Source: Methanobacteriota archaeon (GTDB taxonomy: Archaea > Thermoplasmatota > Thermoplasmata > Lutacidiplasmatales > UBA184). Taken from it: 44,410 nucleotides of DNA. Of this stretch, positions 13,315 to 42,939 are shown in pieces (the first letter of the stretch is position 1; every line of letters begins with the position of its first letter). The notes beneath the pieces were generated by a model, which saw nothing but the letters and a program-made list of their open reading frames with translations, was not told the DNA's origin and ran no database searches. Where the stretch lies: positions 1 through 44,410 of the forward strand of contig JABCYU010000003.1 in the NCBI GenBank assembly GCA_013290045.1, read 5' to 3'. Made by a program: the position numbers and the translations under genes.

Positions 13315-13442
13315 GGCGAATTTCTCAGCCCCTGTCGGACGCACAGTTTTCCTCGCGTGAATCGGGGTCGGCGCGGGCTCCGGGGGGCACCTTTTCCCTC
13401 TCGGAGAGCGCGCCCCTCCAAACCCGCAACCGGGATTGCACC
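13315..13442 (+). repeat. ~120-bp dispersed repeat ending in core site CCCGCAA-CCGGGA-TTGCACC (13423-13442)
   Basis: Aligns by eye with 17807-17890 (+) and 42815-42939 (-); lies between convergent genes. Confidence 0.75.
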
Positions 13443-13583
13443 TTCTGAGAAGCAACTCGGACCCCTCTCGCGGGGAACCTGGACGATCGCAAGGGACAAA
13501 ACTCCTCGACTTCGGTCGCGCGAACCGCCATCGGAAATGGTTGGAGCCGGCCCGGTTCCGCCGGGCCGGCATGTGGGACCGAA

Positions 13584-14723
13584 CTACAGGTGCACCATCC
13601 AGGTGTCGCTCCCGAAGCTGTTCCAGCCGCCAGTCATGGCCTCGTTCCCACTGAAGGTAAAGTCGGCCTGGAGCGCCGCGTCGAACACCAGTCGGGAGTC
13701 CCACCGGCCCGGCAGGGTCCCCACTCGGCTCGTAATGTCGCTCCACTTCCCGTTGTGGAACATCCACGTCTGGTCCACCACTTGGCACGACGCCGTGTAT
13801 CCGCCGGTCATCACGACCGCCTGGGCGAGCGGGTCATACCCGATCGCACCCGACCCCATGTAGGCGGTGGGAATCTTTGACGAATTCGCCCCGAGATTTG
13901 TGAACACCCCGGCGTGGTACGCCCAGGTCGCGCCCGTCCCGGTACAGGTCCAAGTTGAGTTGCCAAACAACAGGACGTACCCATCGTGGATATCGTCCGC
14001 GGCCCAGAACACTCCGCTAGGTAAACCGCCCGACACCGATGAGGTGAGGTTGGTCCACGTCCCATTTGCGAAGCTGTAGACGACTTTCATCGGGATCGCA
14101 CCGGCGACCGTTGAACGGAGGAACACGTAGTGATCCAGACTGTCGTAGACCATCTGGGTCCCGGGCGACATCGCCGGGGGAGAGGCGGACGGGCTCAACC
14201 GATGCCATCCCTTCGCGTCGAACAACCACGTGTCGCTGAACGCACAGCTGGCACCGCAGTACGAGATGTACCCGTTCTGGCCGCCGAACAACAGGACGCC
14301 GTGGAGCGCCGGGTCATAGACGAGTCCAGGTGCCCACCGAGCCGACGGGGAATGGGCGGGTGATCCGTTTCTGCTCGTGCCGGCGCTGATCTGGTGCCAG
14401 TGACCGCTGGCCCACTCCCATGTGTCTCCAAGCGCGCCGCCACCGGCGTTCTGGCCACCGAACACCACGACAGCCCCGATATCCGGGTCGTACGCCATTC
14501 CGAACGCCTGCCGCGCCGTCGGTGGCCCACGGCTCGTATTCGAGATGCTGGTCCAATGTCCGAACACCGTGTTCGCATGCACCGCCGCTCCGGCGGCAGG
14601 AGCCAACATCGAGAGCAGCAGCACCAAGCTACCCCCCACCGCGACGCTCGCACCCATCGCCGTCCTTGCCCCTGATCGGCCCGTCGTGTCCCCCCATGTA
14701 CCGCGGTGCAGCCCGCCTCTCAT
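13584..14723 (-). CDS. Secreted kelch/galactose-oxidase-like beta-propeller protein
   Basis: Signal peptide; repeated 'P.AR....AYD.....VLFGG.....DTW....W' blades. Confidence 0.88.
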   Translation of the reverse strand: MRGGLHRGTWGDTTGRSGARTAMGASVAVGGSLVLLLSMLAPAAGAAVHANTVFGHWTSISNTSRGPPTARQAFGMAYDPDIGAVVVFGGQNAGGGALGDTWEWASGHWHQISAGTSRNGSPAHSPSARWAPGLVYDPALHGVLLFGGQNGYISYCGASCAFSDTWLFDAKGWHRLSPSASPPAMSPGTQMVYDSLDHYVFLRSTVAGAIPMKVVYSFANGTWTNLTSSVSGGLPSGVFWAADDIHDGYVLLFGNSTWTCTGTGATWAYHAGVFTNLGANSSKIPTAYMGSGAIGYDPLAQAVVMTGGYTASCQVVDQTWMFHNGKWSDITSRVGTLPGRWDSRLVFDAALQADFTFSGNEAMTGGWNSFGSDTWMVHL

Positions 14724-15064
14724 GTTCTTCCCCCACGTTCGTTGTTTTGGAATACGCTTGCTCGGTTCTCCGCGACCTTGATTCGGGAAACAGAGCCATA
14801 GAACCTCCCCGATGCTGTCGGGGAGTCGGACGAGAACTGGAACCGCGGTCGTAGGTAACGTAGGCCGGGCTCCGGAGGTCGACGCGGCATGAAGGTCCCC
14901 CGAGCGTCGGTCCTCGGACCACCAGATAAAGCTCGTCCGTGGTTAGTGCATCGCACCCGCGCCCGCGCGGCCGTTGGCGACCTCTCGGCGTTCATCGACC
15001 CTTGCTCGGCACTTCAGCGTCACCCGCAGGTCGGTTTTTCCGTTACGGGGGGAATCATGGGTAA

Positions 15065-15084
15065 GGCGCAATCGAAATTGCACC
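15065..15084. repeat. Palindromic core site GGCGCAA-TCGAAA-TTGCACC, with a weaker neighbour GTTGCGA-ATTGAT-TCGTAAC at 15116-15135
   Basis: Intergenic, near-perfect consensus match. Confidence 0.75.
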
Positions 15085-15155
15085 GGATAGGGCGCTGCCC
15101 GGCGCCGGTCCATCCGTTGCGAATTGATTCGTAACGAAGCCGCCTGTGACCACTC

Positions 15156-15935
15156 CTAGCTGGAGCCCAGCGGGGATGTCCAAACGATATCGTCGAACCG
15201 TCTCCGGTATCCGAGACCAAGGTATACGGGGAGCCCCATCGGGCTCGCCTGAAGGCAGGACGCCCGGCAACCAGCCGCCAGGGCATCGGTGAGCGACCCC
15301 ACGGTCAACGATCGGGCGAGACCCCGTCGTCGGTGGGACGGCAAGGTGGCAACGGCGTAGATCCCGCCGAAAAACTCGTCGGGGAGGAGCATCGAACAGG
15401 CCACTGGGGTCTCCCGCTCCCAGGCGAGGTAGCATCGCATGGGCCGAAGACGATGGAAGGGCACGTCGAACAGTTCTGCGGGCGGAGTAAACTCCGATCC
15501 TCGGGCGAGGACGTCTGCGAATTGTTTCGACTCCTCGGTTGTGGCCACTGGGCTCACTACGTGCTGGCTGGTCAACGCAGGGACCCCGACCAGGGGAATC
15601 GGGACGGTCAGTGCCGGTCGTCTCTCCACCTGGGTAAGACCCGCCCCCGTCGCAGGGCCACTCAAGCTCGGCGCCAGGGACTCGTCGCTTTCGAGCCGCC
15701 AATGCTGCGGGCGTTCTCGAAAGAACTCCGCGGCCCGTTCCACGGTCCGCTCAGGGTCCCCCGGAGGGGACGTGACGAACGCCACGTTCAGTTCGGTCAG
15801 GGTGCTGCCGGAGTCGATCAGTAGGAGCTCGGCGTCCTCCCGGCTGCGGCCGTGGGGAAACCCCTCTGCGAACCGTCGATAGGCCGCGCGGATGTTCCGG
15901 ACCGCATCGGCCGATGGGTGGTCCGTCGGGGTCAA
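15156..15935 (-). CDS. GNAT family N-acetyltransferase
   Basis: GIYAVATLPSHRRRGLARSL (motif A); LQASPMGLPVY..LGY. Confidence 0.92.
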   Translation of the reverse strand: MTPTDHPSADAVRNIRAAYRRFAEGFPHGRSREDAELLLIDSGSTLTELNVAFVTSPPGDPERTVERAAEFFRERPQHWRLESDESLAPSLSGPATGAGLTQVERRPALTVPIPLVGVPALTSQHVVSPVATTEESKQFADVLARGSEFTPPAELFDVPFHRLRPMRCYLAWERETPVACSMLLPDEFFGGIYAVATLPSHRRRGLARSLTVGSLTDALAAGCRASCLQASPMGLPVYLGLGYRRRFDDIVWTSPLGSS

Positions 15936-16136
15936 GGCGTCGTCCCGTAGTCGGCTCGCACCTGGGTCCCGCGTGCCCGGAGGTCAGGTCCCTCACGTAG
16001 AAAGGGTGTCGCAAGGTGACGCTGGTCGACCCGACCGCCTGGGGGGCGGAACCGCCGCTTTGGGGCCGAGTCGGGTCTACCCGACGTCACCGAGGCCTTT
16101 ACGCTCCGACCGCTGTTCGGGGGCCGGGTCCCCCGG

Positions 16137-17681: not shown

Positions 17682-17806
17682 CCCGTTGGGGGTGGGGGCC
17701 CCCCGGCGGCCGGCAACGTTTCCGACCTTGCTGTCGCGAGGCCGATTCTCCGAGTCCGCTTCAGAGGCGTCCGGTAGGTCGGTACGTGATTGCAGGGACC
17801 CCGTTC

Positions 17807-17890
17807 TGATTCGGGGCCGGGAGGGGCTACGGTGGGGGATGTTCTTCGGGAAGAGGCGCGCCCCTCTGAACACGCAACTGAGTTTGCACG
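17807..17890 (+). repeat. Dispersed repeat copy ending in core site CACGCAA-CTGAGT-TTGCACG (17871-17890), upstream of the integrase
   Basis: Shares TG..TCGGGG.C, GGGCT, GCGCGCCCCTC and the core site with 13315-13442. Confidence 0.75.
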
Positions 17891-18032
17891 GGCCTGCTGA
17901 CCATCCTGGGACGACCTGCTCTACCGTCCCGTTCGCTACCGGTCGGTCTCGGGGAGCACGTCGGTTCGGTCAGTAGCCATCGTTCAGCGGAGGGAGCGAG
18001 TCCAAGACCGCAGGTCTCCACGGCACCCCTCG

Positions 18033-19052
18033 ATGTCGCAGTCCAGGACCCCGAGGGGGGCGAGGACTCAACGCCACCAGGGGCATCCCCGCTCGCTGCT
18101 GGGCGGGGGGTCGTCGAGCGCGAGCGGTTCCTTCCCGACCGGAGGTCATTCCGGGGTTGAGTTTGGGTTGGACAGGGCCCCGCCCCGAACCGAAGAATGG
18201 ACGTCGGAAGTCACCCGATTTCTGGCTGCCAAGGACAAGGAGAGTCCGGTCGGAGAGAACTGGAAGAGGCGGATGCGATGGGAGCTCTCCCGAGTTCCCG
18301 ACCTCCTCCAGAGGCTCAGCCCGGCGACGACGCCCTCGAGGGCGGCCGATCTGAATTCAGATCACGTCCTTGCTCTCCGGACGGGGATGGGTTGGGAGAA
18401 GGCCACTCTCGCTCTCCACTTCGCGGCCCTACGGCAGTTCCTCGCGTGGGCCGGGAATCCCATCGCGACCCGGAAGAGCGTTTGGAGGTTGCCGTCTGGA
18501 CAGTCGAGCCGGCGGAGGTGGTTAACGAAAGACCAGTTCGAACGGTTGCTCTCCGCCGCAGTTGGTCCCGCAAAGGCTCTCGTAGCACTGGAAGGGCTGA
18601 ACGGCCTGCGACGCGTAGAGGTCCTGCGCCTGCGGAAGAAGGACGTACTGCTGGAAGAAGGCTGTCTCCGTGTTCTGGGCAAGGGGAGGGACGGCGGGAA
18701 GTGGCGGACGATTCCGATGCATCCAGAGGTTCAGTCCTTCCTGTCCGACTTCGTCATCAAGCTGGATCCGGAAGCCAGACTCTTTCCGGTAAGTCAATCT
18801 GGCGCAGACGGGATGCTCCGCCGGGCGGTCGATGCGGCCGGCTTTGGGGGAGAGGGGGTCCGAATCTCCCATCATGACCTCCGGCGAACATTCGGCAGAA
18901 TGGCTCATCAGTCGGGAATGGATCTCATCCAACTGAAGAATCTCTTCGGCCACAGTTCGGTGGAGATGACGGTCCACTACATCGGGATCGACGCAGACGA
19001 GATGCGCTCTGGCCTAAACCGAATCAGGCTCGGAACGAGGCCAGGTGAATAG
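18033..19052 (+). CDS. Tyrosine recombinase/integrase (Xer-like)
   Basis: Complete catalytic set: GLRRVE (R), GKGR (K), HDLRR (HxxR), LFGHSS (H), TVHYIG (Y); the true start may be downstream. Confidence 0.95.
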   Translation: MSQSRTPRGARTQRHQGHPRSLLGGGSSSASGSFPTGGHSGVEFGLDRAPPRTEEWTSEVTRFLAAKDKESPVGENWKRRMRWELSRVPDLLQRLSPATTPSRAADLNSDHVLALRTGMGWEKATLALHFAALRQFLAWAGNPIATRKSVWRLPSGQSSRRRWLTKDQFERLLSAAVGPAKALVALEGLNGLRRVEVLRLRKKDVLLEEGCLRVLGKGRDGGKWRTIPMHPEVQSFLSDFVIKLDPEARLFPVSQSGADGMLRRAVDAAGFGGEGVRISHHDLRRTFGRMAHQSGMDLIQLKNLFGHSSVEMTVHYIGIDADEMRSGLNRIRLGTRPGE

Positions 19053-19319
19053 GGGTGACCATGGGAGATGGGTCCGTCTCCGACCGGGCCAGGAGTCGTG
19101 AAGCCTGCCACGGGCTCCTAGAAATCGTTCGTCACTTCCGAATCCACCGGATCCGGGAATCAGGTGCCCGCTGAACTTCGAGTTATCCAAGAGTGTCAAG
19201 ACTGGGTTGTGCGACGAAGAAGGCCGACGCCCAGGGCGGTGGGACGGGTTGGGGTGTCTACTGAACCGATGGCCAGGAAGTTCGTGGTGCGGGACGGTTC
19301 ACGCACCCAGACGCCCGGT

Positions 19320-19664
19320 TCAAGGTCGTTGGGGGCGGGTGCCCAAGAGTCGGAGCGCACGTCGGAGACCTGGATAGGTGGTCGCATCCCTGCGAACGAT
19401 TCGGATAAAGGCTACAACATCTCCTTCAACGACAGCATATATGGCCCGGTAGCCAGGATCGTTCGCTGCCGGTCGAATGTCAATACGGGAGAGTATGTGT
19501 GGTCCCTCAAGGGATTTGGTCTCGTATCCCCGAAGCAGGTCGGTGGGGGGAACCAGCGGGTGGGTTTCGAGTTCGTCAAGAGCCCACTCCAAGATGCGCC
19601 TCGCAGCGGGGGGCAAACTATCTCGCTGAAGGCCAGACCTTCCGAGGAAGAGGATACGGCTCAC
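19320..19664 (-). CDS. RelE/ParE-family toxin
   Basis: RelE-like size and pattern (L..HP...TK.LEG...SRI...GYRAIY.V...I.RR..TY), downstream of a small antitoxin. Confidence 0.75.
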   Translation of the reverse strand: MSRILFLGRSGLQRDSLPPAARRILEWALDELETHPLVPPTDLLRGYETKSLEGPHILSRIDIRPAANDPGYRAIYAVVEGDVVAFIRIVRRDATTYPGLRRALRLLGTRPQRP

Positions 19665-19672
19665 TTGCGGCT

Positions 19673-19906
19673 CTATCTACTCGATCGAGACCGTCGGCTG
19701 ACTCTACGAGGAACTCCTTTGACCCTTCCTTTCCGGAAATCCTCGAGGACCCGATGAGCGTGCTTTGCATCCTCTCGGTCCATCTCCCGCTCGAGAAGAT
19801 CGAGCAGGAATGCGTCCCAGTTCTGGGCCCCCGTCTTGAACTCCTGAAGAACTCGGAGAGTCGACGTGTGGACCGGCACGCTCGTAATCGGGTCGACGGC
19901 CGACAT
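19673..19906 (-). CDS. Putative antitoxin (RHH-like; T.VPV...T...L...KT...WD.FL..L)
   Basis: 77 aa; paralogous to 42526-42762; upstream palindrome ATCATT-N5-AATGAT at 19922-19938. Confidence 0.75.
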   Translation of the reverse strand: MSAVDPITSVPVHTSTLRVLQEFKTGAQNWDAFLLDLLEREMDREDAKHAHRVLEDFRKGRVKGVPRRVSRRSRSSR

Positions 19907-20186
19907 GGCATGGCTCAGGACATCATTGTATTAATGATTTTCACCAATATCGAGATCGCGTCCTTCCGACCTCTCGGCCCTATGCCACGAAAGCCCGCAC
20001 GCCCTCAGCTTGCCGCATCCCAGGAACGGTCACTGCTCAAGGTTGTTCTCCGGCGAGGGGCGGCACGCCCATAACTCGGCAAAAGTCTCCGACGCCCTCG
20101 AGAACTCTTGCTTCGATGCCATCCGACGGGCGTCGTTCAGGCATTGCTCCGAGGTGGCAAGCCTGGATTCAACCTATTCGCTTGCG

Positions 20187-20206
20187 TGTGCAACTCTCGC
20201 TGCACC
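20187..20206. repeat. Palindromic core site TGTGCAA-CTCTCG-CTGCACC
   Basis: Intergenic consensus variant. Confidence 0.7.
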
Positions 20207-20280
20207 TCTCCCCACTCCCAGGGGCCCCGTCGTCGGAGAGTTCAGTCGGAGTTGCGCCTAGGTGCCGCCTGCGCCCGACA

Positions 20281-20300
20281 GGTGCAATGGGGGTTGCACC
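20281..20300. repeat. Perfect palindromic core site GGTGCAA-TGGGGG-TTGCACC
   Basis: Exact 7-bp inverted arms around a 6-bp spacer. Confidence 0.8.
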
Positions 20301-20361
20301 GCACGCGAGAGGTCCGTCCGAACCGGCGTCTTTAAGGGATGCCACGTAATACGCGTAACAG

Positions 20362-20568
20362 ATGGCCCTCGAGGTCCTCTACAGTCGACATGCAAGGCAA
20401 AGGATGGTGTTGCGGGGCATTTCGAGCGATGAGGTCGAGATTGCCATTCGGACGGGTGCGAAGTCCCGACAAGGCCCCAGAGTCGTCGCGGCGCATAGCT
20501 ACTTCGAAGTAGTCTATTTGGTAAGGGGGCGCAAGATTATCGTGATCACGGTGAAACCAAGATGGTAG
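20362..20568 (+). CDS. DUF4258-like (RelE-fold) toxin
   Basis: YSRHARQRM..RGIS..EV..AI..G; VITV; TTTAAG box at 20331-20336. Confidence 0.8.
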   Translation: MALEVLYSRHARQRMVLRGISSDEVEIAIRTGAKSRQGPRVVAAHSYFEVVYLVRGRKIIVITVKPRW

Positions 20569-20906
20569 CGAAGGCAGAGAAGTGCCCGGTCTGTGGGAAG
20601 GGTAGGCTGAAGCCGGCAATGGTCCATGAGGAGATGTTCGGGGTGGAGCTCGGGAACTACCCTGGGGAGGTGTGCTCCAATTGCGGGGAGACATTCCTCA
20701 CGACCGAAAGTATGCGGGCCATTGAAGTGCGCGCCAGGGAGTTGGGCCTCTGGGGTCTCGCCTCCAAGGTCAAGGTCGCAAGATCGGGCAATTCGCTCGT
20801 AGTTCGAATCCCGGCTCCCCTAGCCCAGTACTTGAGATTGAAGAAGGGCCAGGAAGTCATGGTCAGCCCTGAGAAGGAAAACCGGCTCGTGCTAGAACTC
20901 GCCTGA
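20562..20906 (+). CDS. YgiT/MqsA-type Zn finger plus AbrB/MazE domain antitoxin
   Basis: CPVCG...VCSNCGETF; KV.RSGNSLVVRIP..LA..L.LK.G.EV; overlaps the toxin gene. Confidence 0.85.
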   Translation: MVAKAEKCPVCGKGRLKPAMVHEEMFGVELGNYPGEVCSNCGETFLTTESMRAIEVRARELGLWGLASKVKVARSGNSLVVRIPAPLAQYLRLKKGQEVMVSPEKENRLVLELA

Positions 20907-20926
20907 GCCAACCCATCGGGGAGGTG

Positions 20927-20946
20927 GGTGCAAGGACAATTGCAAC
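20927..20946. repeat. Palindromic core site GGTGCAA-GGACAA-TTGCAAC
   Basis: 20 bp after the TA stop codon. Confidence 0.8.
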
Positions 20947-21339
20947 CCTCGGCGCAAGAGAAGCGGAATGTCCCTGCCTCCGCAGCGCAAGGTACCAGAA
21001 TTCGTGCAACGCTTGTTGGGCGGTTTGGAGAACTCATCTCGCGAGCTCCTGAAGGCACTTATCGAGACTCGGATCGCACCCGATCGCCGCGAGAAAGACT
21101 AGTCTCCCGGCGGCCCTTGCCCGCACAGTCATTGCGGTCACCCTCTTCAAGCGCTAGTCCTTTCGATCGCATGGGGTCGGTGAAGGGGAGTCAAGAGGAA
21201 GGGACCGAAACCATGCCAGCCCACCGTGTCACCTGCGTAGCTTCGAGATGGTGCCGGACCCTTTCGACTCCTAACGGACTAGAGTTCCATCCCAAGTCTC
21301 GGACCGCTTATCAGCCGCCAGCCTCTACGGTGACCCCCC

Positions 21340-21963
21340 ATGGAGCACCACGCCAGCGCAATTGAGATCCTCGAACGCGCACGCCAAACGTTGGCAGTTG
21401 CTGAGAAGGGCGTACAGGACCTCAGGGGAAAGGACCCGAGCCGGTGGTTACCCGGACTTCTGAACGTCGCCGTTTTCGGGCGAGCAGTAACCAATATTCT
21501 CCAGAATCTTAGGTCCGTAGACCAAAAGTTTGACCCATGGTATGCTCCGAAGGTACTCGAGATGCGGGCGGACAAGCTGCTCCGGTTCTTCTACGAGCTC
21601 CGAACTGAGGTGCTCAAGACGGCTAGACGCGTTCCTACCGCGCACAGAACCCATATCAAGCACCTTGAGCTCCCAAAAGACCTCGCGAGGATGGGACCGA
21701 AGCCTCCCGGAACGACCGGTTTCTTCATCGGAGATTCGGCGGGCGGCTCCGGATGGTTGGTGAGGCTGCCCAATGGAACGCAAGTGCCGTATTACGTGGA
21801 TCTCCCGGATGACATCGGGGTGGTCGACATGACTATTAGAGGCGCCCCCTTGCTGCATCTGGGACAACCTGTTTTGGATGATTCGGCCGCGTCGCTCTCC
21901 TCTTTGTATGTGAACTACCTCCGGAATCTCCTTGACGATGCAGACAAGGTGTTCGGGCATTGA
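21340..21963 (+). CDS. Hypothetical protein, possibly HEPN-like helical domain
   Basis: 207 aa; 'FGRAVT..LQ...F..WY...FF.ELR..VLK' pattern; no canonical RxxxxH. Confidence 0.7.
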   Translation: MEHHASAIEILERARQTLAVAEKGVQDLRGKDPSRWLPGLLNVAVFGRAVTNILQNLRSVDQKFDPWYAPKVLEMRADKLLRFFYELRTEVLKTARRVPTAHRTHIKHLELPKDLARMGPKPPGTTGFFIGDSAGGSGWLVRLPNGTQVPYYVDLPDDIGVVDMTIRGAPLLHLGQPVLDDSAASLSSLYVNYLRNLLDDADKVFGH

Positions 21964-31463: not shown

Positions 31464-31474
31464 CCCCGTCGAAT

Positions 31475-34491: not shown

Positions 34492-34511
34492 GGTGCAATC
34501 AGCATTTCAAC
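34492..34511. repeat. Palindromic core site GGTGCAA-TCAGCA-TTTCAAC
   Basis: Between the divergent MTase and REase genes. Confidence 0.6.
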
Positions 34512-34533
34512 CACGGCCGGCTCGATCCTAAGG

Positions 34534-35676
34534 ATGTCTTCGGCGGGACAGCGGCTGACCGAGTTCTTCGCGACTCTTGACGTCGCTGGCGATGAGCCGA
34601 TAGGAAAGCCTGCGGGAGCGCTTCCCGAAACCCTTAGGCCAGCCTTCCCCGACGCGAAAGAATTCTACGACCTGCTTGGCCAAGTGCAAGCCGTTGGCAG
34701 TAGAGCACACGACGTGCCAAGTCAAAAGCACATCCTCGCTCTAATCCTAGAAAACGACCCGCGATTGTTCTTGGTCCTGTCCCATCTGCATAGACAGATT
34801 CGATTCACCAACGTAGAGATAGCTCGAACCTTGTTCGACCCGAAACGGCTCGATGACCCCGACTACTACACTGGAGCACTCACCCGCGACCCCGAGTTTC
34901 GGAGGGCGTACTCGAAGGCCCGAAAGTGGCGAGAACTCGAGCTTTCGGGGGTGAACTCGCGGACCGGAACCCTAGCGGCGGGCAAGAAGGCCATCAGCGG
35001 CTACATGGGCTCTGAAGAAAGGTGTTGGGAGCTATGGCTCTCACGGATTCGATCTGACCCAGAGACAAGGGAAAGGGTCATCGACTACCTATTCGACCAT
35101 GAAGATCTAGGGGAGCTGATACAGGAGGGTGCCATAGAACAAGCCCTTCGCAGGAGCCTACGTACTACGAATGTCGAGAAGGTGAAGTCCCTCCGCGGAA
35201 CATTTGGAGCTGGGAAGATACGACGAATCCTCCAGGAGGGAGGATTCACCTCGACCGACCACGAGGGGGAGCAGAGCGACATCTCGGACCTGCCTCAACT
35301 CGCGAAGAGAAATGCGCTGGTGGGACCCCTGTTCGCCAGCGAGGTGAACTGGGAGAAAGAGAAGCGCTTCGACTTCGCCCTCTTCAACCAGCGTGAGGTG
35401 CGGTTCGTGGTGGAGACCACGTACTACTCCACTTCCATGTCGAAAATCGGCGAGGTGATCAAGCACTTCGAAGATTTGCGGGCGAAGTGCGCGGACAGCT
35501 TCCATCTCTTCTTCCTCACCGACGGGATCGGTTGGTTCGGCAAGGTGAAGGACATTCGTAGGATGCTGGGCTTTGGAGCCGAGGCGGCAGATGGCACCGG
35601 TCAGTTCCCATATCTGCTAACATACCATCAATTCACCGACCTGTTGCCGGAAATCACCAAGGCTCTCAACGGCTAA
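34534..35676 (+). CDS. DpnII-family type II restriction endonuclease
   Basis: KRFDFAL...VETTYYS.S.SK..E...F.FLTDG.GW matches the DpnII C-terminal signature; adjacent to Dam-like MTases. Confidence 0.85.
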   Translation: MSSAGQRLTEFFATLDVAGDEPIGKPAGALPETLRPAFPDAKEFYDLLGQVQAVGSRAHDVPSQKHILALILENDPRLFLVLSHLHRQIRFTNVEIARTLFDPKRLDDPDYYTGALTRDPEFRRAYSKARKWRELELSGVNSRTGTLAAGKKAISGYMGSEERCWELWLSRIRSDPETRERVIDYLFDHEDLGELIQEGAIEQALRRSLRTTNVEKVKSLRGTFGAGKIRRILQEGGFTSTDHEGEQSDISDLPQLAKRNALVGPLFASEVNWEKEKRFDFALFNQREVRFVVETTYYSTSMSKIGEVIKHFEDLRAKCADSFHLFFLTDGIGWFGKVKDIRRMLGFGAEAADGTGQFPYLLTYHQFTDLLPEITKALNG

Positions 35677-35787
35677 TGGATCAACCATGAAGTGGTCCCG
35701 CGTAAGGCTGGGGAGGTAACTTACATCGAAATGCGGTACATGACTTCATAAAGCGGCCCGGGTTGGAGGAAACGCCCTTCGGAGCAA

Positions 35788-37368
35788 ATGCCGTCAGGTG
35801 AGTGGATACTCGATACGTCCCCGACGAAGCGGGTCTACTACTCCATAATTGCCGATTATGGGCTGAACCTCGCGATTTGCGAACTCGTGGATAACGTGGT
35901 CGACTCTTGGACCCGACGAGGGCGACCGGGAAAGGCGCGTGTCACGATCGATATCGATCTCGACCAACAGACCATCAAGATTGCAGACAATGCGGGGGGT
36001 GTTCCTCGGAATGAATTGCAATACATCGTCGGACCGGGTCATACAGGCAACGATCCCGCGGATCCCTCGATCGGCATATTCGGGGTCGGGACCAAGCGAG
36101 CAGTCGTTGCGCTCGCCGAAGATACTCAAATCAGGACGCGCTTTGAGGAAAAGCCGACCTACAAGATCCGCCTTGACCAAGCGTGGCTTGAACTCCAGTC
36201 CTGGGACCTGCCCTACGAGGTAGCCGGAGACATCGACCCGAATAGCACCGTTATCGAGCTGAGCAGGTTAAGGAAACCCATAACCACAGAGGAGCTAGCA
36301 GGACTCAAGGCCCATCTCGGGGCGACTTACGCCCGATTCATAGATTCGTCGAAGTTGGGGATTCAGTTTCAGGGCGAAACAATCGAGTCCATCCATTTTG
36401 AAGCTTGGGCCTTCCCCCCGGAGTATCGACCTAGACGATACAGAGGTACCATCGACGCAGGCGTCGATGGTCAGGTCAGAGTCGACATGACCGGAGGCCT
36501 AACTCAAGAATCTAGTCCGGGCACCGGGGAGTATGGTTTGTACGTCTACTGCAACGGCCGCTTGGTAGGCCGCGCGCTCAAGGGCGCGGATGTGGGCTTT
36601 ACGAAGGGGCTTGTGGGCATGCCACATCCCGACATATCTCTTACGAGATTAATCGTCTTGTTGGACGGTCCGGCTAAACTCATGCCTTGGAACAGCAGCA
36701 AGTCCGGAATTAACACCCAGAGCGGAATCTTCCAATTGCTTCAGGGTTGGACGATCCCGATTCTCAAGTCTTTCGCTTCGGTATCGCGGGGGTTGTCGAA
36801 AGTCGATGGTTCTTGGCGCGAAAACGTGTTCAAGTTTGACCACGGTTCTCCCGAGGAGCGTCCGCTTGGCAATTCGCCTCAGGTCGCACGACTTCATCTT
36901 CCACCGATCCCCAAGTCGAAACCGAGATTGGCCGAACGCCTTGCAAAACTAAACGAACCGGTAACCACAGCCAAACCCTGGACACGAGGCCTGTTTGAGG
37001 GCGTGGCCGCCGCGCGGCTGATCGCATCTGGCCGCTACGAACAAGGGAACAGGATTGCACTGATTGTGCTGGATTCGACCCTGGAGATAGGGTTCAAGGA
37101 GTTCCTGGTCAACCGGGGGGGTGGAGGATATTCAGATACGCGCTTGCAGGCCATATTTTCCAATCGCAGGCTTGTTGACGACGAGATTCACAAGGTCGCA
37201 AAGTTCCCAAGGAAGGAGCTGGCTCAGATTCGCTTCTATTACAACCTAAGATGCGATCTCATCCATCGAAAGGCTTCTATTTCAATATCGGACAATCAGA
37301 TCGCCGATTACGCCGACATCGTGGAGAAGGCACTCAGGAGGTTGTTCGGGTTGAAATTCTCCGAGTGA
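35788..37368 (+). CDS. GHKL (MORC/Hsp90-like) ATPase fused to a C-terminal HEPN domain
   Basis: ICELVDNVVDS, IADNAGG, IGIFGVGTKRA, STVIEL; S5-like YVYCNGRLV; C-terminal LIVLD..LE...K.FL...YNLRCDLIH (RxxxxH). Confidence 0.88.
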   Translation: MPSGEWILDTSPTKRVYYSIIADYGLNLAICELVDNVVDSWTRRGRPGKARVTIDIDLDQQTIKIADNAGGVPRNELQYIVGPGHTGNDPADPSIGIFGVGTKRAVVALAEDTQIRTRFEEKPTYKIRLDQAWLELQSWDLPYEVAGDIDPNSTVIELSRLRKPITTEELAGLKAHLGATYARFIDSSKLGIQFQGETIESIHFEAWAFPPEYRPRRYRGTIDAGVDGQVRVDMTGGLTQESSPGTGEYGLYVYCNGRLVGRALKGADVGFTKGLVGMPHPDISLTRLIVLLDGPAKLMPWNSSKSGINTQSGIFQLLQGWTIPILKSFASVSRGLSKVDGSWRENVFKFDHGSPEERPLGNSPQVARLHLPPIPKSKPRLAERLAKLNEPVTTAKPWTRGLFEGVAAARLIASGRYEQGNRIALIVLDSTLEIGFKEFLVNRGGGGYSDTRLQAIFSNRRLVDDEIHKVAKFPRKELAQIRFYYNLRCDLIHRKASISISDNQIADYADIVEKALRRLFGLKFSE

Positions 37369-37447
37369 TGAGGCACCCGCGAGGGAACCGGATGAATTCT
37401 CCTTGGAACCAGGATCTCCGACCCAGGTAAGAAAGACTCGACTCAGA

Positions 37448-37467
37448 GGTGCAAAGCGGATTGCAAC
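37448..37467. repeat. Palindromic core site GGTGCAA-AGCGGA-TTGCAAC
   Basis: 80 bp after the GHKL-HEPN stop codon. Confidence 0.8.
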
Positions 37468-37770
37468 TCCATGGCGAAGAACGACGCGTCCCGATAGGGT
37501 ACGCCCGACCTCCGCTCTGAGCCCGGGTCCCAGTGGTGCTCCGATCATCGCGGGGGAGGCTCCTCGGAGTCCCGGTCACGCACTGAGAGGAGACGGGCGA
37601 AAGGGAACCGTTGCCCCCACCCTCAACGGGTGCGTTTTCTATGAGGCCCCCGAGGTCCACATCAGACACTTCCGTTCAACCACGACGGATAGGTCTTAAT
37701 CAGTGGTAAGCCTGACACGAAGTCGGCCCCTTATCCGTGGTCGGACGATCGCTAACGTCGAGGGTTCATC

Positions 37771-38343
37771 TTGGGAAACGCCATTGATCTTCACGACGTG
37801 CCGAAGCAGGCATGGGCTGGAGCGGGAAAGCAGGGAAGATTTGGATTCTACAGCGCCGTAGTTCTGTCAATTTTGCTGTCGGCTATCGGCGTCTGGGGGT
37901 TTCTGGCGATTGCACAACGAGAGTGGCCCGACGGTCAATTTTGGACGGACCTCCCGGAGTTGATTGGGATTGGCGTCTTCCTCTACGGGTTCGTCGGAGT
38001 GTTGACCTGGGTGTCATTCACCAGGCAGGGAAAACCTGCGATCGGTCTGGACTTGGACGGAGGTGGCATCCAAATCCGGTATTCTTGGTTTGGCCCTCTC
38101 CTGCTCAGATGGGATGACCCCACTTTCCGGCTAAGATTTCAAAAAGTTAGGAGGTGGTTGAACCCTGAACAGAGTGTGGACTATCGAGTCGCCTACTTCA
38201 GATGGAAGCCACCACTCTTCCTGCGCGAGACCGAGTTCCAAACGCTCATAGACGCAGCAAGCTCTGCGGGAATGAAGGTCGAGACGGTGAATCCCACCCA
38301 GTGGCCAATCAACGAGGTTGTGTCGATTCGAGGGCGCGCATAG
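37771..38343 (+). CDS. Two-TM membrane protein with soluble C-terminal domain
   Basis: Two hydrophobic helices followed by a beta-rich domain. Confidence 0.7.
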   Translation: MGNAIDLHDVPKQAWAGAGKQGRFGFYSAVVLSILLSAIGVWGFLAIAQREWPDGQFWTDLPELIGIGVFLYGFVGVLTWVSFTRQGKPAIGLDLDGGGIQIRYSWFGPLLLRWDDPTFRLRFQKVRRWLNPEQSVDYRVAYFRWKPPLFLRETEFQTLIDAASSAGMKVETVNPTQWPINEVVSIRGRA

Positions 38344-38676
38344 GCTCGCGATAGCTCGAATTCCAAGGCGCTTCCGGGCACCGGTCCCTGCCCTGAACAG
38401 GGAACCATGCGGGACCCCCTCTAGTCTCTCGTGCCCCGCTCCTTTGAGGGGCGTCGGGGTTGAGTAGGCCCCCCTCGGGGCGGGATTGAACGGTCCGCAG
38501 GCCCGATTGGGGGAAACCGGTCGCCGGGGGAAAGGCTCGCGATGCCCCAGGGAAGCCATCTCGCGCGCAAGGTGTCCGATGAAGTCAGTCCAATGACGGT
38601 GACGGGCTACTGACCGAAAGTCCCCCTGCACGGCTCGAGGGCGTCGCTGATCACGACGTGACAAGGCCTCGGGATG

Positions 38677-38696
38677 GGTGAAAAGTGTATTGCACT
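38677..38696. repeat. Palindromic core site GGTGAAA-AGTGTA-TTGCACT
   Basis: Between convergent genes; shares GTGTATTGCA with the 42157 site. Confidence 0.65.
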
Positions 38697-38898
38697 TGAC
38701 TAGAGAGATGCGGAAATTGGGAGCCTGTCCGCATGACCAACCCGCCAGGCTCGGTCACCAGGCCTTTACGACTGTGCCACCGGCGCCGGCCGAACACCTG
38801 GTCAGTTTCGCTGGGTAATCGAGGGACCCCGTGGGAACACATGACCCCACCCGTAACGGGTGGGTTTCCGGACAGGGGAGACCTTCGTGATCGAAGCC

Positions 38899-39654
38899 CT
38901 AGGGGGTCGGGCGGACAAAGGACTTCACAGATCGCGATGATCGTGACCCAAACGCCCAAGCAACCATCAAGGGAAACTCGCTTCGCCAGAGCGGGTCGCC
39001 GTGTGACGCGTTCCGCTCCCTAAGGACGACGTCCGCACCCGCGCTGCGGAGTGCGCTCGCCCATCGGATCGCATTCTGGAGAAAGAACGGTTCCTTCGTG
39101 CCGGCGACGAGGTAGACGCGTGGGAGCGGTTTCGACAGCTCTGCACTCGGTTTGTAACCCCCGCCCGGCGAGCCGGAAAAGACCACACCGTACACGGCCG
39201 GATGGCGTACCCCGAGAGCGAGGGCGAGCTCCCCGCCAGCCGATACACCGAACACGGCGGTTCGCTCCGGGGGGAGCGCTACTGCGAAGCGCAGGGCTAC
39301 CCATCGACGGACGGTCGCTACGAAGAACTCTTCGTGGCGCGCGAAGCGTTCCGAGTAAAAGGCCGGTGAGTACTCATGGAGGCGAGGCGTCGCTTCGCTC
39401 AGCCCGTGGACGCCCACGATCATCGTGGAAGGAACGCCCTCCCCCGTGAGTCCATCACCCCAGCTCGAAATCCTCTGTCCATCGCCGGCAAAAACGATGA
39501 ACTCGGGCGGATACGGCGGTATGTAGGCCGTGACTTCCCGGCCGCCGTCGTAATCGAAGGTTTCGGTAATCAGCTTCCCCGCTGTCCGATCAGGGCTTGC
39601 CGTCCGCTTCGGAAGATTGGGACCCTTCGCCCTTACCGGCGCTTCATCACTCAT
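38899..39654 (-). CDS. Alpha/beta hydrolase (putative esterase)
   Basis: AVFGVSAGG nucleophile elbow; R..EYSP; YLVAG..E; terminal His in ASHG...W..EFP; ATG at 39654 preferred. Confidence 0.88.
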   Translation of the reverse strand: MSDEAPVRAKGPNLPKRTASPDRTAGKLITETFDYDGGREVTAYIPPYPPEFIVFAGDGQRISSWGDGLTGEGVPSTMIVGVHGLSEATPRLHEYSPAFYSERFARHEEFFVATVRRWVALRFAVALPPERTAVFGVSAGGELALALGVRHPAVYGVVFSGSPGGGYKPSAELSKPLPRVYLVAGTKEPFFLQNAIRWASALRSAGADVVLRERNASHGDPLWRSEFPLMVAWAFGSRSSRSVKSFVRPTP

Positions 39655-40034
39655 CGTCGGACGTCGACCCCTCGATGTCAGCGGGGGACCCTTGCCCGAA
39701 GACGTACTTCGCCTATTTGCCCAAGACGGCAACTTGGAGCGCGCGGGGATGAATGTCGTGGCATGCAGCGACACTTCTCAAGGCAGGTCTCTGCTCGCCG
39801 AACTAGGCCCTCACCTTGGATTCGAAGACTGTCGAAGTGTCGGTCACGACTTTCGAGGATCGGGGGGCGCTGCCGGTGATGGTTGTTCCGTCGATCAAGG
39901 GGTCCCACCGACCGGTGCACTGGTATCGAGAACTGGGCGATCTAACATCGGAGCGGTCGTGAACTACGTTGCAGTGTACACGAGCGAATCCCTGGCCCCG
40001 GAACCGCGCTCTCGGTGAGGCTGCACAAAAGGTG

Positions 40035-40394
40035 TTAGTCCTCGGTGTCCGGGTAGTTCGCACGCTTCAACTTGGCGACGATGGAGGGCAGATCGTCGTG
40101 TATGAACCGCCACACCCGTTCAGCCTTCATTTCAGGGTATTCGTGGACCAGGTCGTTCCGCAGCTGGTCGATATCTTCCCACGGAACCATGGGGTTCGCC
40201 TTGCGGAAAGATTGACCTATCTTTGTCCCGGTCTCGGTGAAATGCAGCGCCCGAAGCTCCGCCGCATCCCGGAATTCCGGGGTGCGAATGTCGAAGAACC
40301 GGTCCTTCCCGCCAGACACGTACCGTCCGGCGGCCGTGGCCTCGCGCAGCATCCGGTCGATTAGGAGTCGAGTCCTCTCCTCGGTGGCCTTCAA
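40035..40394 (-). CDS. HepT-like RNase (DUF86, HEPN toxin)
   Basis: P.VPW..I..LRNDLVHEY...VW..I..DLP. Confidence 0.9.
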   Translation of the reverse strand: MKATEERTRLLIDRMLREATAAGRYVSGGKDRFFDIRTPEFRDAAELRALHFTETGTKIGQSFRKANPMVPWEDIDQLRNDLVHEYPEMKAERVWRFIHDDLPSIVAKLKRANYPDTED

Positions 40395-40828
40395 AGTGTT
40401 ACCGCCTCAGCCTCGACCTGGGGGCGCATGGCCCAGGGAAGATCGGAAAGTTCCACCACGTCGACGGGGCGCCCGAGAACCTTGCGAAGCTCGATCTTCA
40501 GGTGGGCGACATCCAGAAGTGACATTCGGGGTAGCGCGTCCACAAGGAGATCCACGTCGCTTGCCGCGGTCGCCTCTTGCCGACGGACTGAACCGAAGAC
40601 ACGGACCTGTTTGACCCCGTAACTCTTCAACAGCGTCAGGACCTCCGTCCGCTTCGGACCCAAGACTTCCTTGATTCCAAGGCCGCTGCCTAGTTCGGTC
40701 GGGCGTATCACCGGAGTATTCCAGAGTCTCGACTTGCACCGAGGGCACATCCGAACCGGAGTCCGTCTCGGGGTCCAGGTGTAGACGCACCGGTAGCAGT
40801 GCATCTCGGGGAGACTCGAGTTGAGCAT
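40391..40828 (-). CDS. MntA-like nucleotidyltransferase antitoxin with N-terminal Zn ribbon
   Basis: CYRC...CPRC; VFGSVRR.E....SDVDLLV; LGR.VDVV; 4-bp overlap with the HEPN gene. Confidence 0.9.
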   Translation of the reverse strand: MLNSSLPEMHCYRCVYTWTPRRTPVRMCPRCKSRLWNTPVIRPTELGSGLGIKEVLGPKRTEVLTLLKSYGVKQVRVFGSVRRQEATAASDVDLLVDALPRMSLLDVAHLKIELRKVLGRPVDVVELSDLPWAMRPQVEAEAVTL

Positions 40829-40936
40829 CGGCGGGGAAGGGAGAGTTGAATCGGTAGATTAAACTTACTCATGCGTAACACGAGGCTGAGTAATGTCGGA
40901 TGCGTTCGTCTGGCCGCGACTGGCCCAGGCGCACGC

Positions 40937-42105
40937 TAGTGTCATTTCTAGGGCGGTAGAGTAGGTTCTGCCGGACCGCAAAGGCTAGTGCCGGGGAGTG
41001 CTCCCTCCCCGGGCATGGTGCTCCGGGTTCGAGAGATCTCCAATGAGGAAGGCAACCGGCTCCGGACCGCGATCCGACACTCGAAAGACCTCATCGAGAT
41101 GAAACGGGCCCAGGTGATCCTGGGCTCAGCTCAGCGGTTCACCGTCCAGAAGATCGCTATCTTCTCGGGAATGTCCGACGGCTACATTCGGATCCTGATT
41201 CACGCGTTCAACGAGGAGGGGCTCGCGATGCTCAAGCCCCGATGGAATCCAGGACATCGCACCAAGTTTTCGAAGGAGACTCGGGCACGGCTGGTGGCGC
41301 TGGCCACCGGCCGACCTCGGGACCTGGGGCTCCCCTTCGGTCAGTGGAGCCTACGACGCCTTCGGGACGCCGCGGTGGCGAGGGGCATCGTGGACTCGAT
41401 CTCCCTCGAGTGGCTGAGGGTCATCTGTGACGAGGCGGACGTCACGCACCAATCGATCCGGACATGGAAGGAGAGCAAGGACCCGAAGTTCGAGGAGAAG
41501 AGGGCGCGGATCGACCGCCTCACGGCGAAGCGGCACAACCCCCCAGTCGTCCTCAGTATGGATGAGATCGGCCCGATCTCCCTCAAGCCCCACGGCGGCA
41601 AGGGGTGGTTCAAGAAGGGGCTGCCGGGACGGATCCCAGCGACCTACAAGAAACAGAGCGGGACACGTTACGAGTACACCTGTCTGAACGTGTTCCATCA
41701 GACGTTGAGCGTCAAGCAAGAGGAACACAAGGGCGGAGCGATCTGGCTACGATTCATGAAGTACCAACGCTCGAAATACTCTCCCGACCAGAGGGTCTAC
41801 ATCATCCAGGACGGACTCAGCGCCCACTGGACTCCTGAGGTGAGAGCGTGGGCGAGGGTCCACAAGGTATCCCTCGTCTCCACGGCCACCGACGCCAGTT
41901 GGATGAACCCGGTGGAGTGCCACGCCGGACCACTCCAGGTGGCGGCGATGGCCGGGAGTGATTGGTGGAGTTGGGGCGAGGTGGACGAGGCGTTCCGGAG
42001 GGCGGCTCAACTCATCACGCGAGAGCACAAGGCATCAGGGAAGGAGTTCAGGAGCACCCAACACAAGGTCAGCAAACATCGTCGGCCGCTCTGGACGCGA
42101 CACTA
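40937..42105 (+). mobile_element. IS630-family insertion sequence (complete copy)
   Basis: Imperfect terminal IRs (CTAGTGTCATTTCTAGGGCGG vs CTAGTGTCGCGTCCAGAGCGG, 16/21); CTAG target with TA duplication; left end identical to 44284-44410. Confidence 0.92.
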
Positions 42106-42106
42106 G
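41015..42106 (+). CDS. IS630-family DDE transposase
   Basis: HTH domains, WSLRRL, SMDEIGP (D), IQDGLSAH (D), WMNPVE (E); stop codon uses the right end/target TAG. Confidence 0.95.
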   Translation: MVLRVREISNEEGNRLRTAIRHSKDLIEMKRAQVILGSAQRFTVQKIAIFSGMSDGYIRILIHAFNEEGLAMLKPRWNPGHRTKFSKETRARLVALATGRPRDLGLPFGQWSLRRLRDAAVARGIVDSISLEWLRVICDEADVTHQSIRTWKESKDPKFEEKRARIDRLTAKRHNPPVVLSMDEIGPISLKPHGGKGWFKKGLPGRIPATYKKQSGTRYEYTCLNVFHQTLSVKQEEHKGGAIWLRFMKYQRSKYSPDQRVYIIQDGLSAHWTPEVRAWARVHKVSLVSTATDASWMNPVECHAGPLQVAAMAGSDWWSWGEVDEAFRRAAQLITREHKASGKEFRSTQHKVSKHRRPLWTRH

Positions 42107-42156
42107 GTGCTGACTGCCGCCCTCCGGGGAGTAGAGAATCTAGCGCACCCAACTCG

Positions 42157-42176
42157 GGTGCAAGGTGTATTGCAAC
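42157..42176. repeat. Palindromic core site GGTGCAA-GGTGTA-TTGCAAC
   Basis: 27 bp past the RelE stop, between convergent genes. Confidence 0.8.
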
Positions 42177-42202
42177 TTTCGCGAGGGAGGTGCGTGGGTT
42201 GC

Positions 42203-42523
42203 CTACTCGCTCGCCTGCGCGTTGCCGGAGTAGAGTCGAGCTCGGTCCCGCAGCTTGAGATAGAAATCGGCCCTTGGGCCGAAACCCAGGAGTCGAATGA
42301 CACCACCCTCGACACGAAAGTACGCTCTCCTCTGAGGGTGGCGAAGTTTGAGCTTCCACAGGCCGTCCGCCCCAGAGAGTTCCTCGACAACGAAGCCTGG
42401 CCCCCCTCTAAACGGATGTTCGACCATTTGCCGGAGAGCGTCCTCGAAATCGTACCGATCCTGTCGTGAGAGGGCTAGGTACTCTTCGCGTGCTCTTGGG
42501 TGGAAGGATAGCGCGTAAGGCAC
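42203..42523 (-). CDS. RelE/ParE-family toxin
   Basis: Y.L.FHP.A..E...L...L..HPF...L.G..GLWKL....RAYF.V...GPR.DFY. Confidence 0.85.
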   Translation of the reverse strand: MPYALSFHPRAREEYLALSRQDRYDFEDALRQMVEHPFRGGPGFVVEELSGADGLWKLKLRHPQRRAYFRVEGGVIRLLGFGPRADFYLKLRDRARLYSGNAQASE

Positions 42524-42525
42524 GG

Positions 42526-42762
42526 TCAGCGCCGAGGTCTACGCATCGAACGGCTCTGGTGAAAGACGTCGTCGCCTGCGATATCTTTGGAGGCCGAGGT
42601 TCGAGACCGACGCTCGAGTTCTTCCACCCAGGATCGGGGCACATAGTCGCTTGCCAGCTCGAGGAGGAAGTCGTCCCAAGTCTGGTCCGCTGTCTTCAGA
42701 GTTCGCAGGCGCTTGACGACCTCGGCGTGCACTGGAATGGTTGTGAGGGTGTTCGAGGCCAT
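42526..42762 (-). CDS. Putative antitoxin (paralog of 19673-19906)
   Basis: TTIPVH.EV..RL..LKT..QTWDDFLLEL; ATG at 42762 preferred. Confidence 0.78.
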   Translation of the reverse strand: MASNTLTTIPVHAEVVKRLRTLKTADQTWDDFLLELASDYVPRSWVEELERRSRTSASKDIAGDDVFHQSRSMRRPRR

Positions 42763-42814
42763 GGTAGTGATGGTCAATGACGCTCATGGTTAAGAATCTT
42801 GCCGACCGCCGCGA

Positions 42815-42939
42815 GCTGGAAGGTGTCTTGCGTGAATGGAGGGGCGCGCTGGTCACCGAGGAAAACCCCCCTCCAGAGCCCTTCCTGACCCCGATGCAGG
42901 GCCGAGAAAACCGATTCGCCCTTCAGACGGGAGTTCGCC
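42815..42939 (-). repeat. Reverse copy of the ~120-bp dispersed repeat, ending in core site 42815-42834 (GCTGGAA-GGTGTC-TTGCGTG)
   Basis: Reverse complement aligns with 13315-13442 (GTTTTC.TCG, TG.ATCGGGGTC, GGGCTC, AGCGCGCCCCTCCA, C.CGCAA). Confidence 0.75.

Follow-up and report, generated by a model that had tools for sequence, protein, structure and literature searches.

Genomic setting of the repeat

We analyzed a stretch of 44,410 bp (the window), which is the entire contig C3 (GenBank JABCYU010000003.1) of the archaeal genome assembly GCA_013290045.1, here called G000. This genome (2.23 Mb in 183 contigs, 68% GC, 89.5% complete) belongs to a genus of soil Thermoplasmata, and the DNA runs containing the window sequence are soil metagenomes. 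The subject of this work is a non-coding repeat of about 120 nt that is present three times in the window and ends in a palindromic core. We call this unit, core included, the long form, and the short symmetric palindromes that accompany it simple sites. Relatives are numbered G003, G010 and so on, with L numbers for loci taken from them; 100 genus genomes were scanned for the exact core and 150 for the ~120-nt unit. The copies in the window are the following.

13326..13446, plus strand: copy 1 (accessory part and core), 85.1 bits; core GCAACCGGGATTGC at 13426-13439, exact
17793..17894, plus strand: copy 2, 78.2 bits; core GCAACTGAGTTTGC at 17874-17887, exact; 5' part diverged
42811..42930, minus strand: copy 3, in the opposite orientation to copies 1 and 2, 82.2 bits; core at 42818-42831 with one mismatch (GCAAGACACCTTCC, minus strand)
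5223..5333, plus strand: possible eroded copy, marginal, 13.6 bits, E 0.029 with filters off

The covariance model itself spans 13342-13446 (+), 17793-17894 (+) and 42811-42914 (-); a conserved 5' extension of about 16 nt carries copy 1 to ~13326 and copy 3 to ~42930. Copies 2 and 3 form an inverted repeat (I1, 17806-17877 / 42828-42899, 72%). Copy 1 lies between two convergent genes, TrmB-like (12418-13236, +) and Kelch (13584-14723, -). Copy 2 is found 112 bp past the stop codon of a gene for a 514-aa protein, directly ahead of a recombinase gene and at the edge of a lower-GC island. Both placements agree with the non-coding nature assigned to the repeat in a preliminary description of this DNA.

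That description had placed the three copies at these same positions, and they were recovered by the covariance model as well as by an nhmmer profile derived from 38 copies in other genomes after removal of the G000 rows. Across the 2.23 Mb of G000, the latter profile gave exactly four matches at E<1, three on C3 (13346-13443, E 2.1e-13; 17800-17889, E 2.1e-10; 42912-42817, E 4.3e-9) and one on C33 (14377-14460, E 6.7e-9). The best match of the same profile in a mononucleotide-shuffled genome had an E-value of 0.96. A seed profile made from the window also retrieved the three window copies and the fourth on C33, with nothing else below E ~2.7. The genome-wide search proposed earlier returned four significant copies. 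The term "dispersed" holds only with a qualification, as there are only four copies in the genome and three of them are on this one contig. All the blocks listed as shared (TCGGGG.C-N5-GGGCT, a G-run, TTYY and GCGCGCCCCTC-N4-C.CGCAA-N6-TT.CA) were present in the three-way alignment of the window copies, which has a mean column identity of 65%. The three copies all end in GCAA-N6-TTGC, exactly so in copies 1 and 2 but with one mismatch in copy 3. Two further, eroded copies had been suspected. The first, at 5215-5330, is marginal only (E 0.037 in the other search) and was not matched by the other-genome nhmmer profile at E<1, and the second, at 770-866, gave nothing at E<=5.

Anatomy of the unit

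The ~120-nt unit was detected in 26 of the 150 genus genomes, with up to nine copies per genome, and copies from the same genome share only about 70% identity. To describe its anatomy, 39 distinct copies from 26 genomes were aligned. The consensus reads, 5' to 3', CCTCTCGGnCGAA; CCACTTTCCCCTGACGTGAAAC; a hairpin of variable sequence; GGGGG-TTTTTCCTCGGCGGAA; and GCGCGCTACTCTAAACACGCAA-N6-TTGCACCC, with blocks conserved at >=80% across the 39 copies, and the unit's end is GCAA-N6-TTGCACCC. In addition to the variable hairpin, the conserved part holds a T-run, GCGCGCTACTCTAAAC and three direct CCTC..G.GAA boxes, the latter being a sequence observation read from the alignment. Homology between genomes begins sharply, 12-16 nt before the first position of the model, and stops at the core, in some cases ahead of the spacer and in others just past the right arm; the flanks are unrelated between genomes.

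Only the left arm of the core departs from the palindrome consensus, with ACACGCAA instead of GGGTGCAA, while the right arm and the 6-bp length of the spacer are kept. In the 39 copies, this weak left arm adjoins the ~100 nt of conserved DNA. The earlier remark that such a unit would give some sites directionality is sound: symmetry is a property of the simple sites but not of the long form. In some genomes the two arms change together, with TCAA/TTGA in G205 and GTCAA/TTGAC or GTCAC/GTGAC in copies of G079, G196 and G057.

We also evaluated the unit as RNA. In the variable hairpin, 14 of 17 pairs are changed on both sides, and its covariation score of 0.237 compares with 0.121 in shuffles (0/500 reach it) and with <=0.10 when the helix is slid along the alignment. 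Helix 1 has 23 G-U cells against 13 A-C cells, but it is paired in only 66% of cells, and this on a model-fitted alignment. The folding energy on the unit's strand was no better than that of shuffles (z -0.92, +1.33, +0.61 and +0.52), and no Rfam match was found at the gathering threshold in the window, nor any for the unit at that threshold or at E<=1.

A family of palindromic sites with 6-bp spacers

The core of the unit belongs to a family of short palindromes. The logo of 42 exact sites, those of relatives included, is gTGGGTGCAA-N6-TTGCACCCAc, that is, inverted arms of 10 bp around a variable spacer of 6 bp (10-6-10). The inner arm ends in CAA...TTG in all 42 sites, and the spacer is free except that A is rare at its start and T never stands at its end. 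With the exact motif GCAA-N6-TTGC, 14 sites were counted in G000, of which ten are on this 44-kb contig; other spacings of GCAA/TTGC gave 0-15 occurrences genome-wide. At <=1 mismatch the window contains 30 matches vs 9.2 +/- 3.1 in shuffles, and none of 100 shuffles reached 30. In addition to the exact cores of copies 1 and 2, the simple sites of the window are listed below, with no strand assigned.

15065..15084: GGCGCAA-TCGAAA-TTGCACC, between the Kelch and GNAT genes
20281..20300: GGTGCAA-TGGGGG-TTGCACC, left border of a 660-bp cassette
20927..20946: GGTGCAA-GGACAA-TTGCAAC, right border of the 660-bp cassette (Zn-ribbon/AbrB-like gene 20562-20906)
22906..22925: cttGCAA-CGCCAC-TTGCAgc, weaker outer arms
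27741..27760: ggcGCAA-TCACGC-TTGCAaa, upstream of the HEPN gene; overlapped by a 1-mismatch site at 27756
28877..28896: TGTGCAA-CCAGAC-TTGCACC, with a 1-mismatch site at 28838
37448..37467: GGTGCAA-AGCGGA-TTGCAAC, after the HATPase gene
42157..42176: GGTGCAA-GGTGTA-TTGCAAC, 50 bp beyond the IS630-like element on its right-hand side

Two cases of repeated spacers were noted in other genomes. In G201, an identical-spacer pair at C7:29926 / 36763 is inverted and 6.8 kb apart, and it could invert the intervening segment. In G162, the same 16-mer occurs on two contigs (C4:308593 and C9:306157).

Distribution and placement of the sites

Exact cores are patchily distributed among the 100 genus genomes scanned. 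G003, G010, G040 and G151 have 30, 31, 33 and 32 of them, respectively (1-11 in the reversed control), and many genomes have 0-2; none of our claims draws on three of the scanned genomes that are flagged as unpublished. The longer motif TGCAA-N6-TTGCA occurs 26-28 times each in G003, G010 and G040 vs 0-1 in the reversed control. The sites cluster in islands of 45-65 kb; examples are the stretches G010:C1:692-750 kb (17 sites) and G003:C1:52-117 kb (18 sites). Long-form copies are found inside clusters of simple sites in G162 (3/3), G204 (3/3) and G194 (3/9), and also in G003.

All 42 exact sites fall outside called genes. The gene calls are home-made (based on GC3 and a codon score), miss genes in the lower-GC island and give gene distances that are unreliable above ~300 bp. 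The 3' end of a flanking gene is <=63 bp from the site in 21/45 cases (minimum 4), and no start codon is nearer than 61 bp. By type of intergenic region, 25 sites are between tandem, 10 between convergent and 7 between divergent genes. The long form has no fixed orientation relative to its neighbors, the upstream gene being co-oriented in 16 cases and divergent in 17, and the downstream counts being 13 vs 23. In four genomes, direct long-form pairs 0.9-1.1 kb apart bracket single genes. These are unrelated to one another, and the idea of a gene specific to paired copies was abandoned on this ground.

The cluster in G003 illustrates the kind of genes found between sites. It holds SnoaL (four), glyoxalase (five), GNAT, PIN/VapB, DUF1330, SDR, epimerase and MBL genes, together with TetR/ArsR/AsnC regulators, a cyclase-TPR protein and elements of the IS630 and IS110 families. 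Adenylate/guanylate cyclase-TPR proteins of ~650 aa recur beside the long form or simple sites in G008 (twice), G090, G076 and G003 (L033, L034, L035, L037, L046), and make up a multi-copy family that seems to travel as a cassette.

The recombinase gene

Directly downstream of copy 2, the window encodes a tyrosine recombinase.

18033..19052, plus strand: Xer-like tyrosine recombinase gene, longest open reading frame (ORF) (Pfam PF00589, 2e-17)

Since the alignment to orthologs begins around residue 50, translation probably initiates near 18180. The best solved relative of the protein is XerA of Pyrococcus abyssi (4a8e, 1.8e-10). With NCBIfam models, it scored 80.3 bits as XerA_Arch (cutoff 220) and 37.4 bits as integron integrase (cutoff 265), the latter over residues 164-241 only. 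The genuine XerA of G000 is a separate gene on contig C16 (239.5 bits), and there are three further paralogs. Orthologs of the window recombinase with at least 48% identity were found in 32 of 100 genus genomes. An Xer-like recombinase is located inside or beside the arrays in G000, G003, G151 and G201, and the ortholog locus L118 has four sites in the 10 kb upstream. Insertion into a tRNA or tmRNA gene was considered and set aside, as no tRNA was found in the window or in 20 recombinase loci. Many orthologs lie within 2 kb of a contig start. A motif like CCGTTCA(T/C)CGTTCG, seen ~150-250 nt upstream of many of them (L050-L069), may be their promoter or a site of their own.

Gene content of the window

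Copies 2 and 3 bracket a region that differs in composition from the rest of the window.

18000..42800, no strand: lower-GC accessory island, bracketed by copies 2 and 3, with seven simple sites

Its GC content is 0.56-0.63 over 18-43 kb vs 0.65-0.69 elsewhere, with a fall from ~0.67 to ~0.58 past 18 kb. The island genes include HEPN, HNH, Dam-type and N6/N4 methylase, DpnII-like nuclease, HATPase and MNT genes as well as an IS630-like element. Several of them form a defense-type cluster at 27884-37368, with a Swt1-like HEPN protein (27884-28807), HNH (30445-31410), a Dam-type methylase (32476-33381), an N6/N4 methylase (33420-34514, minus strand), a DpnII-like nuclease (34534-35676) and a HATPase protein (35788-37368). 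Nucleotidyltransferases of the MNT type are encoded at 5783-6370 and 40391-40828. The IS630-like element spans 40937-42107 (HTH_32/DDE_3 transposase 40988-42106) and has the ends CTAGTGTC.../...GACACTAG. These are unrelated to the site arms, and the element was dismissed as the source of the palindrome. A second copy, 100% identical, runs from 44285 to the contig end (44410), and this is probably why the assembly breaks there.

Other features of the window were recorded as well. At 19740-19935 (minus strand), the first ~60 codons of a small gene (MSAVDPITSVPVHTSTLRVLQEFKTGAQNWDAF...) have 77-85% DNA identity in six other genus genomes, while its surroundings do not, and this segment may be the conserved N-terminal domain of a variable cassette protein. 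The Kelch gene (13576-14666) has a 76% identical paralog at G000:C73:5640-6727, with 82% over the last 145 bp. The ORF at 9108-10535 contains an internal direct repeat of 229 nt (9533-9761 / 10151-10379, 74% identity), which suggests a protein with repeated domains.

Homology breaks at the sites

Some of the breaks in homology between genomes fall exactly on the sites. G003 and G151 have modules in common at 77-89% identity in a patchwork, and three of the 12 ends of their high-scoring segment pairs (HSPs) fall on a palindrome, one of these being the core of a long form. A copy in G008 and one in G162 (G008a, G162a) have 503 bp of 5' flank and the unit in common, and diverge at the core. We also compared the window at the contig level with X2, a DNA run of a related soil strain that is 95-99% identical to it. 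One X2 contig fits the window only from 20279, and another only up to 20944, after which it differs (14 loose letters). These positions correspond to the two sites that flank the 660-bp cassette at 20281-20946. No X2 contigs covered 21.3-27.3 kb and 29.3-32 kb, which is a hint of variable content only. Homologs of the cassette gene (Zn-ribbon/AbrB) were examined in nine other genomes, and in two of them a site is present on one side at a similar distance (in G064, and in G033, where a long form supplies the core); in G205, a third genome, the sites are of the variant TCAA/TTGA type.

A candidate site-specific recombination system

Our best reading of these data is that the ~120-nt repeat may represent the long, asymmetric variant among Xer/dif-type sites that punctuate islands of accessory genes. 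More specifically, the long form could be a directional recombination site with an accessory arm, of the cer/psi or attI kind, within a cassette system resembling dif modules; we advance this tentatively, at somewhat less than even chances. Among the three options named in the preliminary description (an att-like site with accessory boxes, a small non-autonomous element and a non-coding RNA), the first fits anatomy and context best. The core has Xer geometry, the weak arm stands next to the conserved DNA, three boxes are present, simple sites and a recombinase gene are adjacent, and some homology breaks fall on the core. From these observations we infer protein binding, strand exchange and a role for the arm. 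In such a system, a tyrosine recombinase, either the Xer-like paralog of the island or the host XerA encoded on contig C16, would bind the core. The conserved arm of ~100 nt would bind additional recombinase or an accessory protein, and this would make the site directional and control the choice of partner, as do the accessory sequences of cer and psi and the DR boxes of attI. The long form would then act as a docking or resolution site among the cassettes.

Several results weigh against this proposal. The spacers of nearly all sites differ, and those of the long-form copies all do; classical tyrosine recombinases need matching spacers, and unlike spacers argue against simple pairwise recombination. 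The link to the recombinase is loose. Upstream regions of 21 orthologs are not conserved and do not contain the ~120-nt unit, which led us to discard an attI-like site fixed upstream of the recombinase gene, and model R1 gave only weak, off-position matches in the ortholog loci (best E 0.0062, for a match in L048 that lies elsewhere than upstream of the gene). In this comparison, G000 and G085 alone had a palindrome upstream of the recombinase. Exact sites are few in many of the genomes that have an ortholog, site counts track the ortholog loosely, and G010 and G040, with about 30 sites each, have recombinase homologs that are only 36-43% identical. When <=2 mismatches are allowed, the 20-mer is more frequent than its reversed control in five genomes of other families (8-22 vs 0-3), an excess that could point to a conserved DNA-binding protein rather than to an island recombinase. 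With regard to homology breaks, the remaining nine of the 12 HSP ends between G003 and G151 are not on sites, each X2 break rests on a single short contig, and no joints at sites were seen in the X2 contig comparison. Finally, a two-gene module (GNAT and the 514-aa protein) has different flanks in three lineages and no palindrome nearby; gene turnover here thus does not require sites.

Alternative explanations

The palindrome could instead be an operator, that is, the site of a dimeric transcription factor or nucleoid protein, with the unit as a regulatory module and the islands co-regulated or silenced. Conserved arms around a free spacer are as expected for dimeric binders, the long-form core can form a stem of only 4 bp, as if read as sequence and not as a hairpin, and the excess at <=2 mismatches in five genomes of other families points in the same direction. 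The left site of the 660-bp cassette also lies ~30 bp upstream of a TATA-like CTTTAAG. However, the placement of the sites is not that of promoters (10/42 between convergent genes, 21/45 flanking 3' ends within 63 bp), and the long form keeps no fixed orientation to either neighbor. No regulator gene common to the arrays was found, and class-wide counts at <=1 mismatch are close to a rough chance estimate of ~0.3 per genome. We consider this explanation unlikely. The Zn-ribbon/AbrB protein of the cassette (20562-20906) was tried as the site binder and rejected, since its orthologs (65-72% identity) were present in 7/100 genomes, with none found in G003, G010 and G151.

Alternatively, the part of ~105 nt could be a small non-autonomous mobile element that inserts into the left arm of the palindrome, the core being a remnant of the target. 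Comparable target choice is known for IS1202- and IS1111-type elements at dif or attC sites in bacteria, and target-specific insertion sequences beside pdif/dif are described in PMC10132070. The sharp start of homology (-12 to -16), its end at the core and the unrelated flanks fit an element equally well, and this too counts against a recombination site. Spacer and right arm vary from copy to copy, like different targets, and in place of the left arm stands the unit's own end (AAACAC). Between 0 and 9 copies were counted per genome, and an IS110-family transposase gene lies 1.2 kb from a copy in the G003 array. On the other hand, the ends (CCTCTCGG... / ...CTAAACAC) are not inverted copies of each other, and no duplicated flank was seen in ~20 copies, by eye and with no formal scan. 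No empty site was found; neither the comparison of G025 with G007 nor that of the TrmB region with 150 genomes turned up an orthologous locus. There was also no autonomous parent with the same ends, as model R2 matches only ~100-nt units, and the IS630-like element of the window has unrelated ends. The ~70% identity of copies within a genome excludes a recent burst. Overall, an element of this kind appears quite improbable.

The weakest option, a small structured RNA gene or 3' untranslated region element with the palindrome as terminator or processing hairpin, is very unlikely despite the moderate covariation of one hairpin, given the missing Rfam match and the folding no better than shuffles described above, the mere 4 bp that the terminal palindrome of the long form can pair, and the lack of a promoter-like box at a fixed upstream distance and of a fixed relation to neighboring genes. 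Among the contigs listed from RNA libraries (runs X3 and X4), none covered copies 1 and 2, although contigs cannot show absence and this counts neither for nor against the RNA option.

Comparison with known systems

In cer (ColE1) and psi (pSC101), a core of Xer format is accompanied on one side, next to its weaker arm, by ~100-180 bp of accessory DNA that makes the site directional. The long form is like them in that its conserved DNA flanks the core on a single side, that of the weaker arm. It differs in lying on an archaeal chromosome and in occurring several times per genome with different spacers; PepA, ArgR and ArcA are not implicated, and the context is not one of plasmid multimer resolution.

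The site arrays are also similar to the dif modules of Acinetobacter, presented in PMC6449649, PMC12907356 and PMC13141974 as small accessory modules (toxin-antitoxin, resistance-type) that are delimited by dif-like sites with variable 6-bp spacers and found in differing contexts. Here as well, the sites are intergenic and the genes between them cassette-like, as in the cassette at 20281-20946 with a site at each end. However, pdif arms are asymmetric (XerC/XerD) and the sites alternate in orientation, whereas asymmetry is confined here to the long form, and the short sites have the symmetry to be expected if one archaeal Xer acts on them. Moreover, they occupy archaeal chromosomal islands of 45-65 kb and not plasmids, often with a dedicated Xer-like paralog nearby.

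In integrons, attI combines a simple site whose left box is degenerate with additional repeats that bind the integrase, and the long form resembles it. The arrays are a looser match to integrons than to dif modules, the likeness lying in short accessory genes separated by recombination-type sites just after stop codons. Arrays of accessory genes in archaeal integrons were reported by Ghaly et al. (2022), and canonical integrons are rare in archaea, with 75/6718 genomes (PMC9668308). Differences from integrons are several: the recombinase is without the IntI signature (37.4 bits vs the cutoff of 265), the sites are 26-bp perfect palindromes and not imperfect attC hairpins of 57-141 bp with R''/L''...L'/R' boxes (no attC model was used), the genes occur in both orientations, and the long form is not fixed beside the recombinase gene.

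The likeness to the archaeal XerA/dif pair lies in the inverted repeat with its 6-bp spacer and in the recombinase, for which XerA of P. abyssi is the nearest relative of solved structure. Bacterial and archaeal dif sites have 11-6-11 inverted arms according to PMC2958812 and PMC8371274, and PMC11840125, which deals with the dif of Thermococcus kodakarensis, gives TAA-Nn-TTA as the most conserved feature among reported archaeal dif sites. While dif is single-copy in each chromosome and lies in the terminus region, up to ~30 clustered sites per genome were found here, with CAA/TTG inner arms. We also considered the 20-mer as a class-wide single-copy dif and rejected this, its counts at <=1 mismatch being near the chance estimate given above. 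A near-identical 20-mer, GGTCCAA-GGAC(T/C)C-TTGCACC, was observed, spacer included, in different families (G272:C61, G404:C50, G299:C40, G036:C3:360886 and G252:C7:82804), with one copy differing in the spacer and another by two letters. This 20-mer could lie within a conserved gene or be a single-copy site that is conserved, for example a candidate for the true dif.

The repeat is genuine and forms one component of a larger and apparently undescribed site system. We found no description of such arrays in archaea in the literature on dif-like and cassette systems, integrons and pdif, in a search that was not exhaustive.

Significance

Little is understood of how archaea build up and rearrange their flexible gene pools. 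Sites of Xer geometry at module borders, together with a long directional variant, provide a testable candidate mechanism in an abundant soil lineage, and the palindrome and model R2 offer a sequence tag for spotting such islands in metagenomes. A wider proposal, which we regard as doubtful, is that soil Thermoplasmata possess a hitherto undescribed gene-shuffling platform, in which arrays of symmetric Xer-type sites would delimit cassettes and the ~120-nt long site would dock or resolve them directionally, run by a new Xer-like clade or by XerA and tolerating unlike spacers. Modules of the dif type are known mainly from Acinetobacter plasmids, and chromosomal ones have been reported recently (PMC12907356). 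If recombination does proceed despite unlike spacers, the system would be relevant to the unsettled issue of how dif modules are mobilized. The proposed platform would also be an archaeal counterpart of integrons and dif modules.

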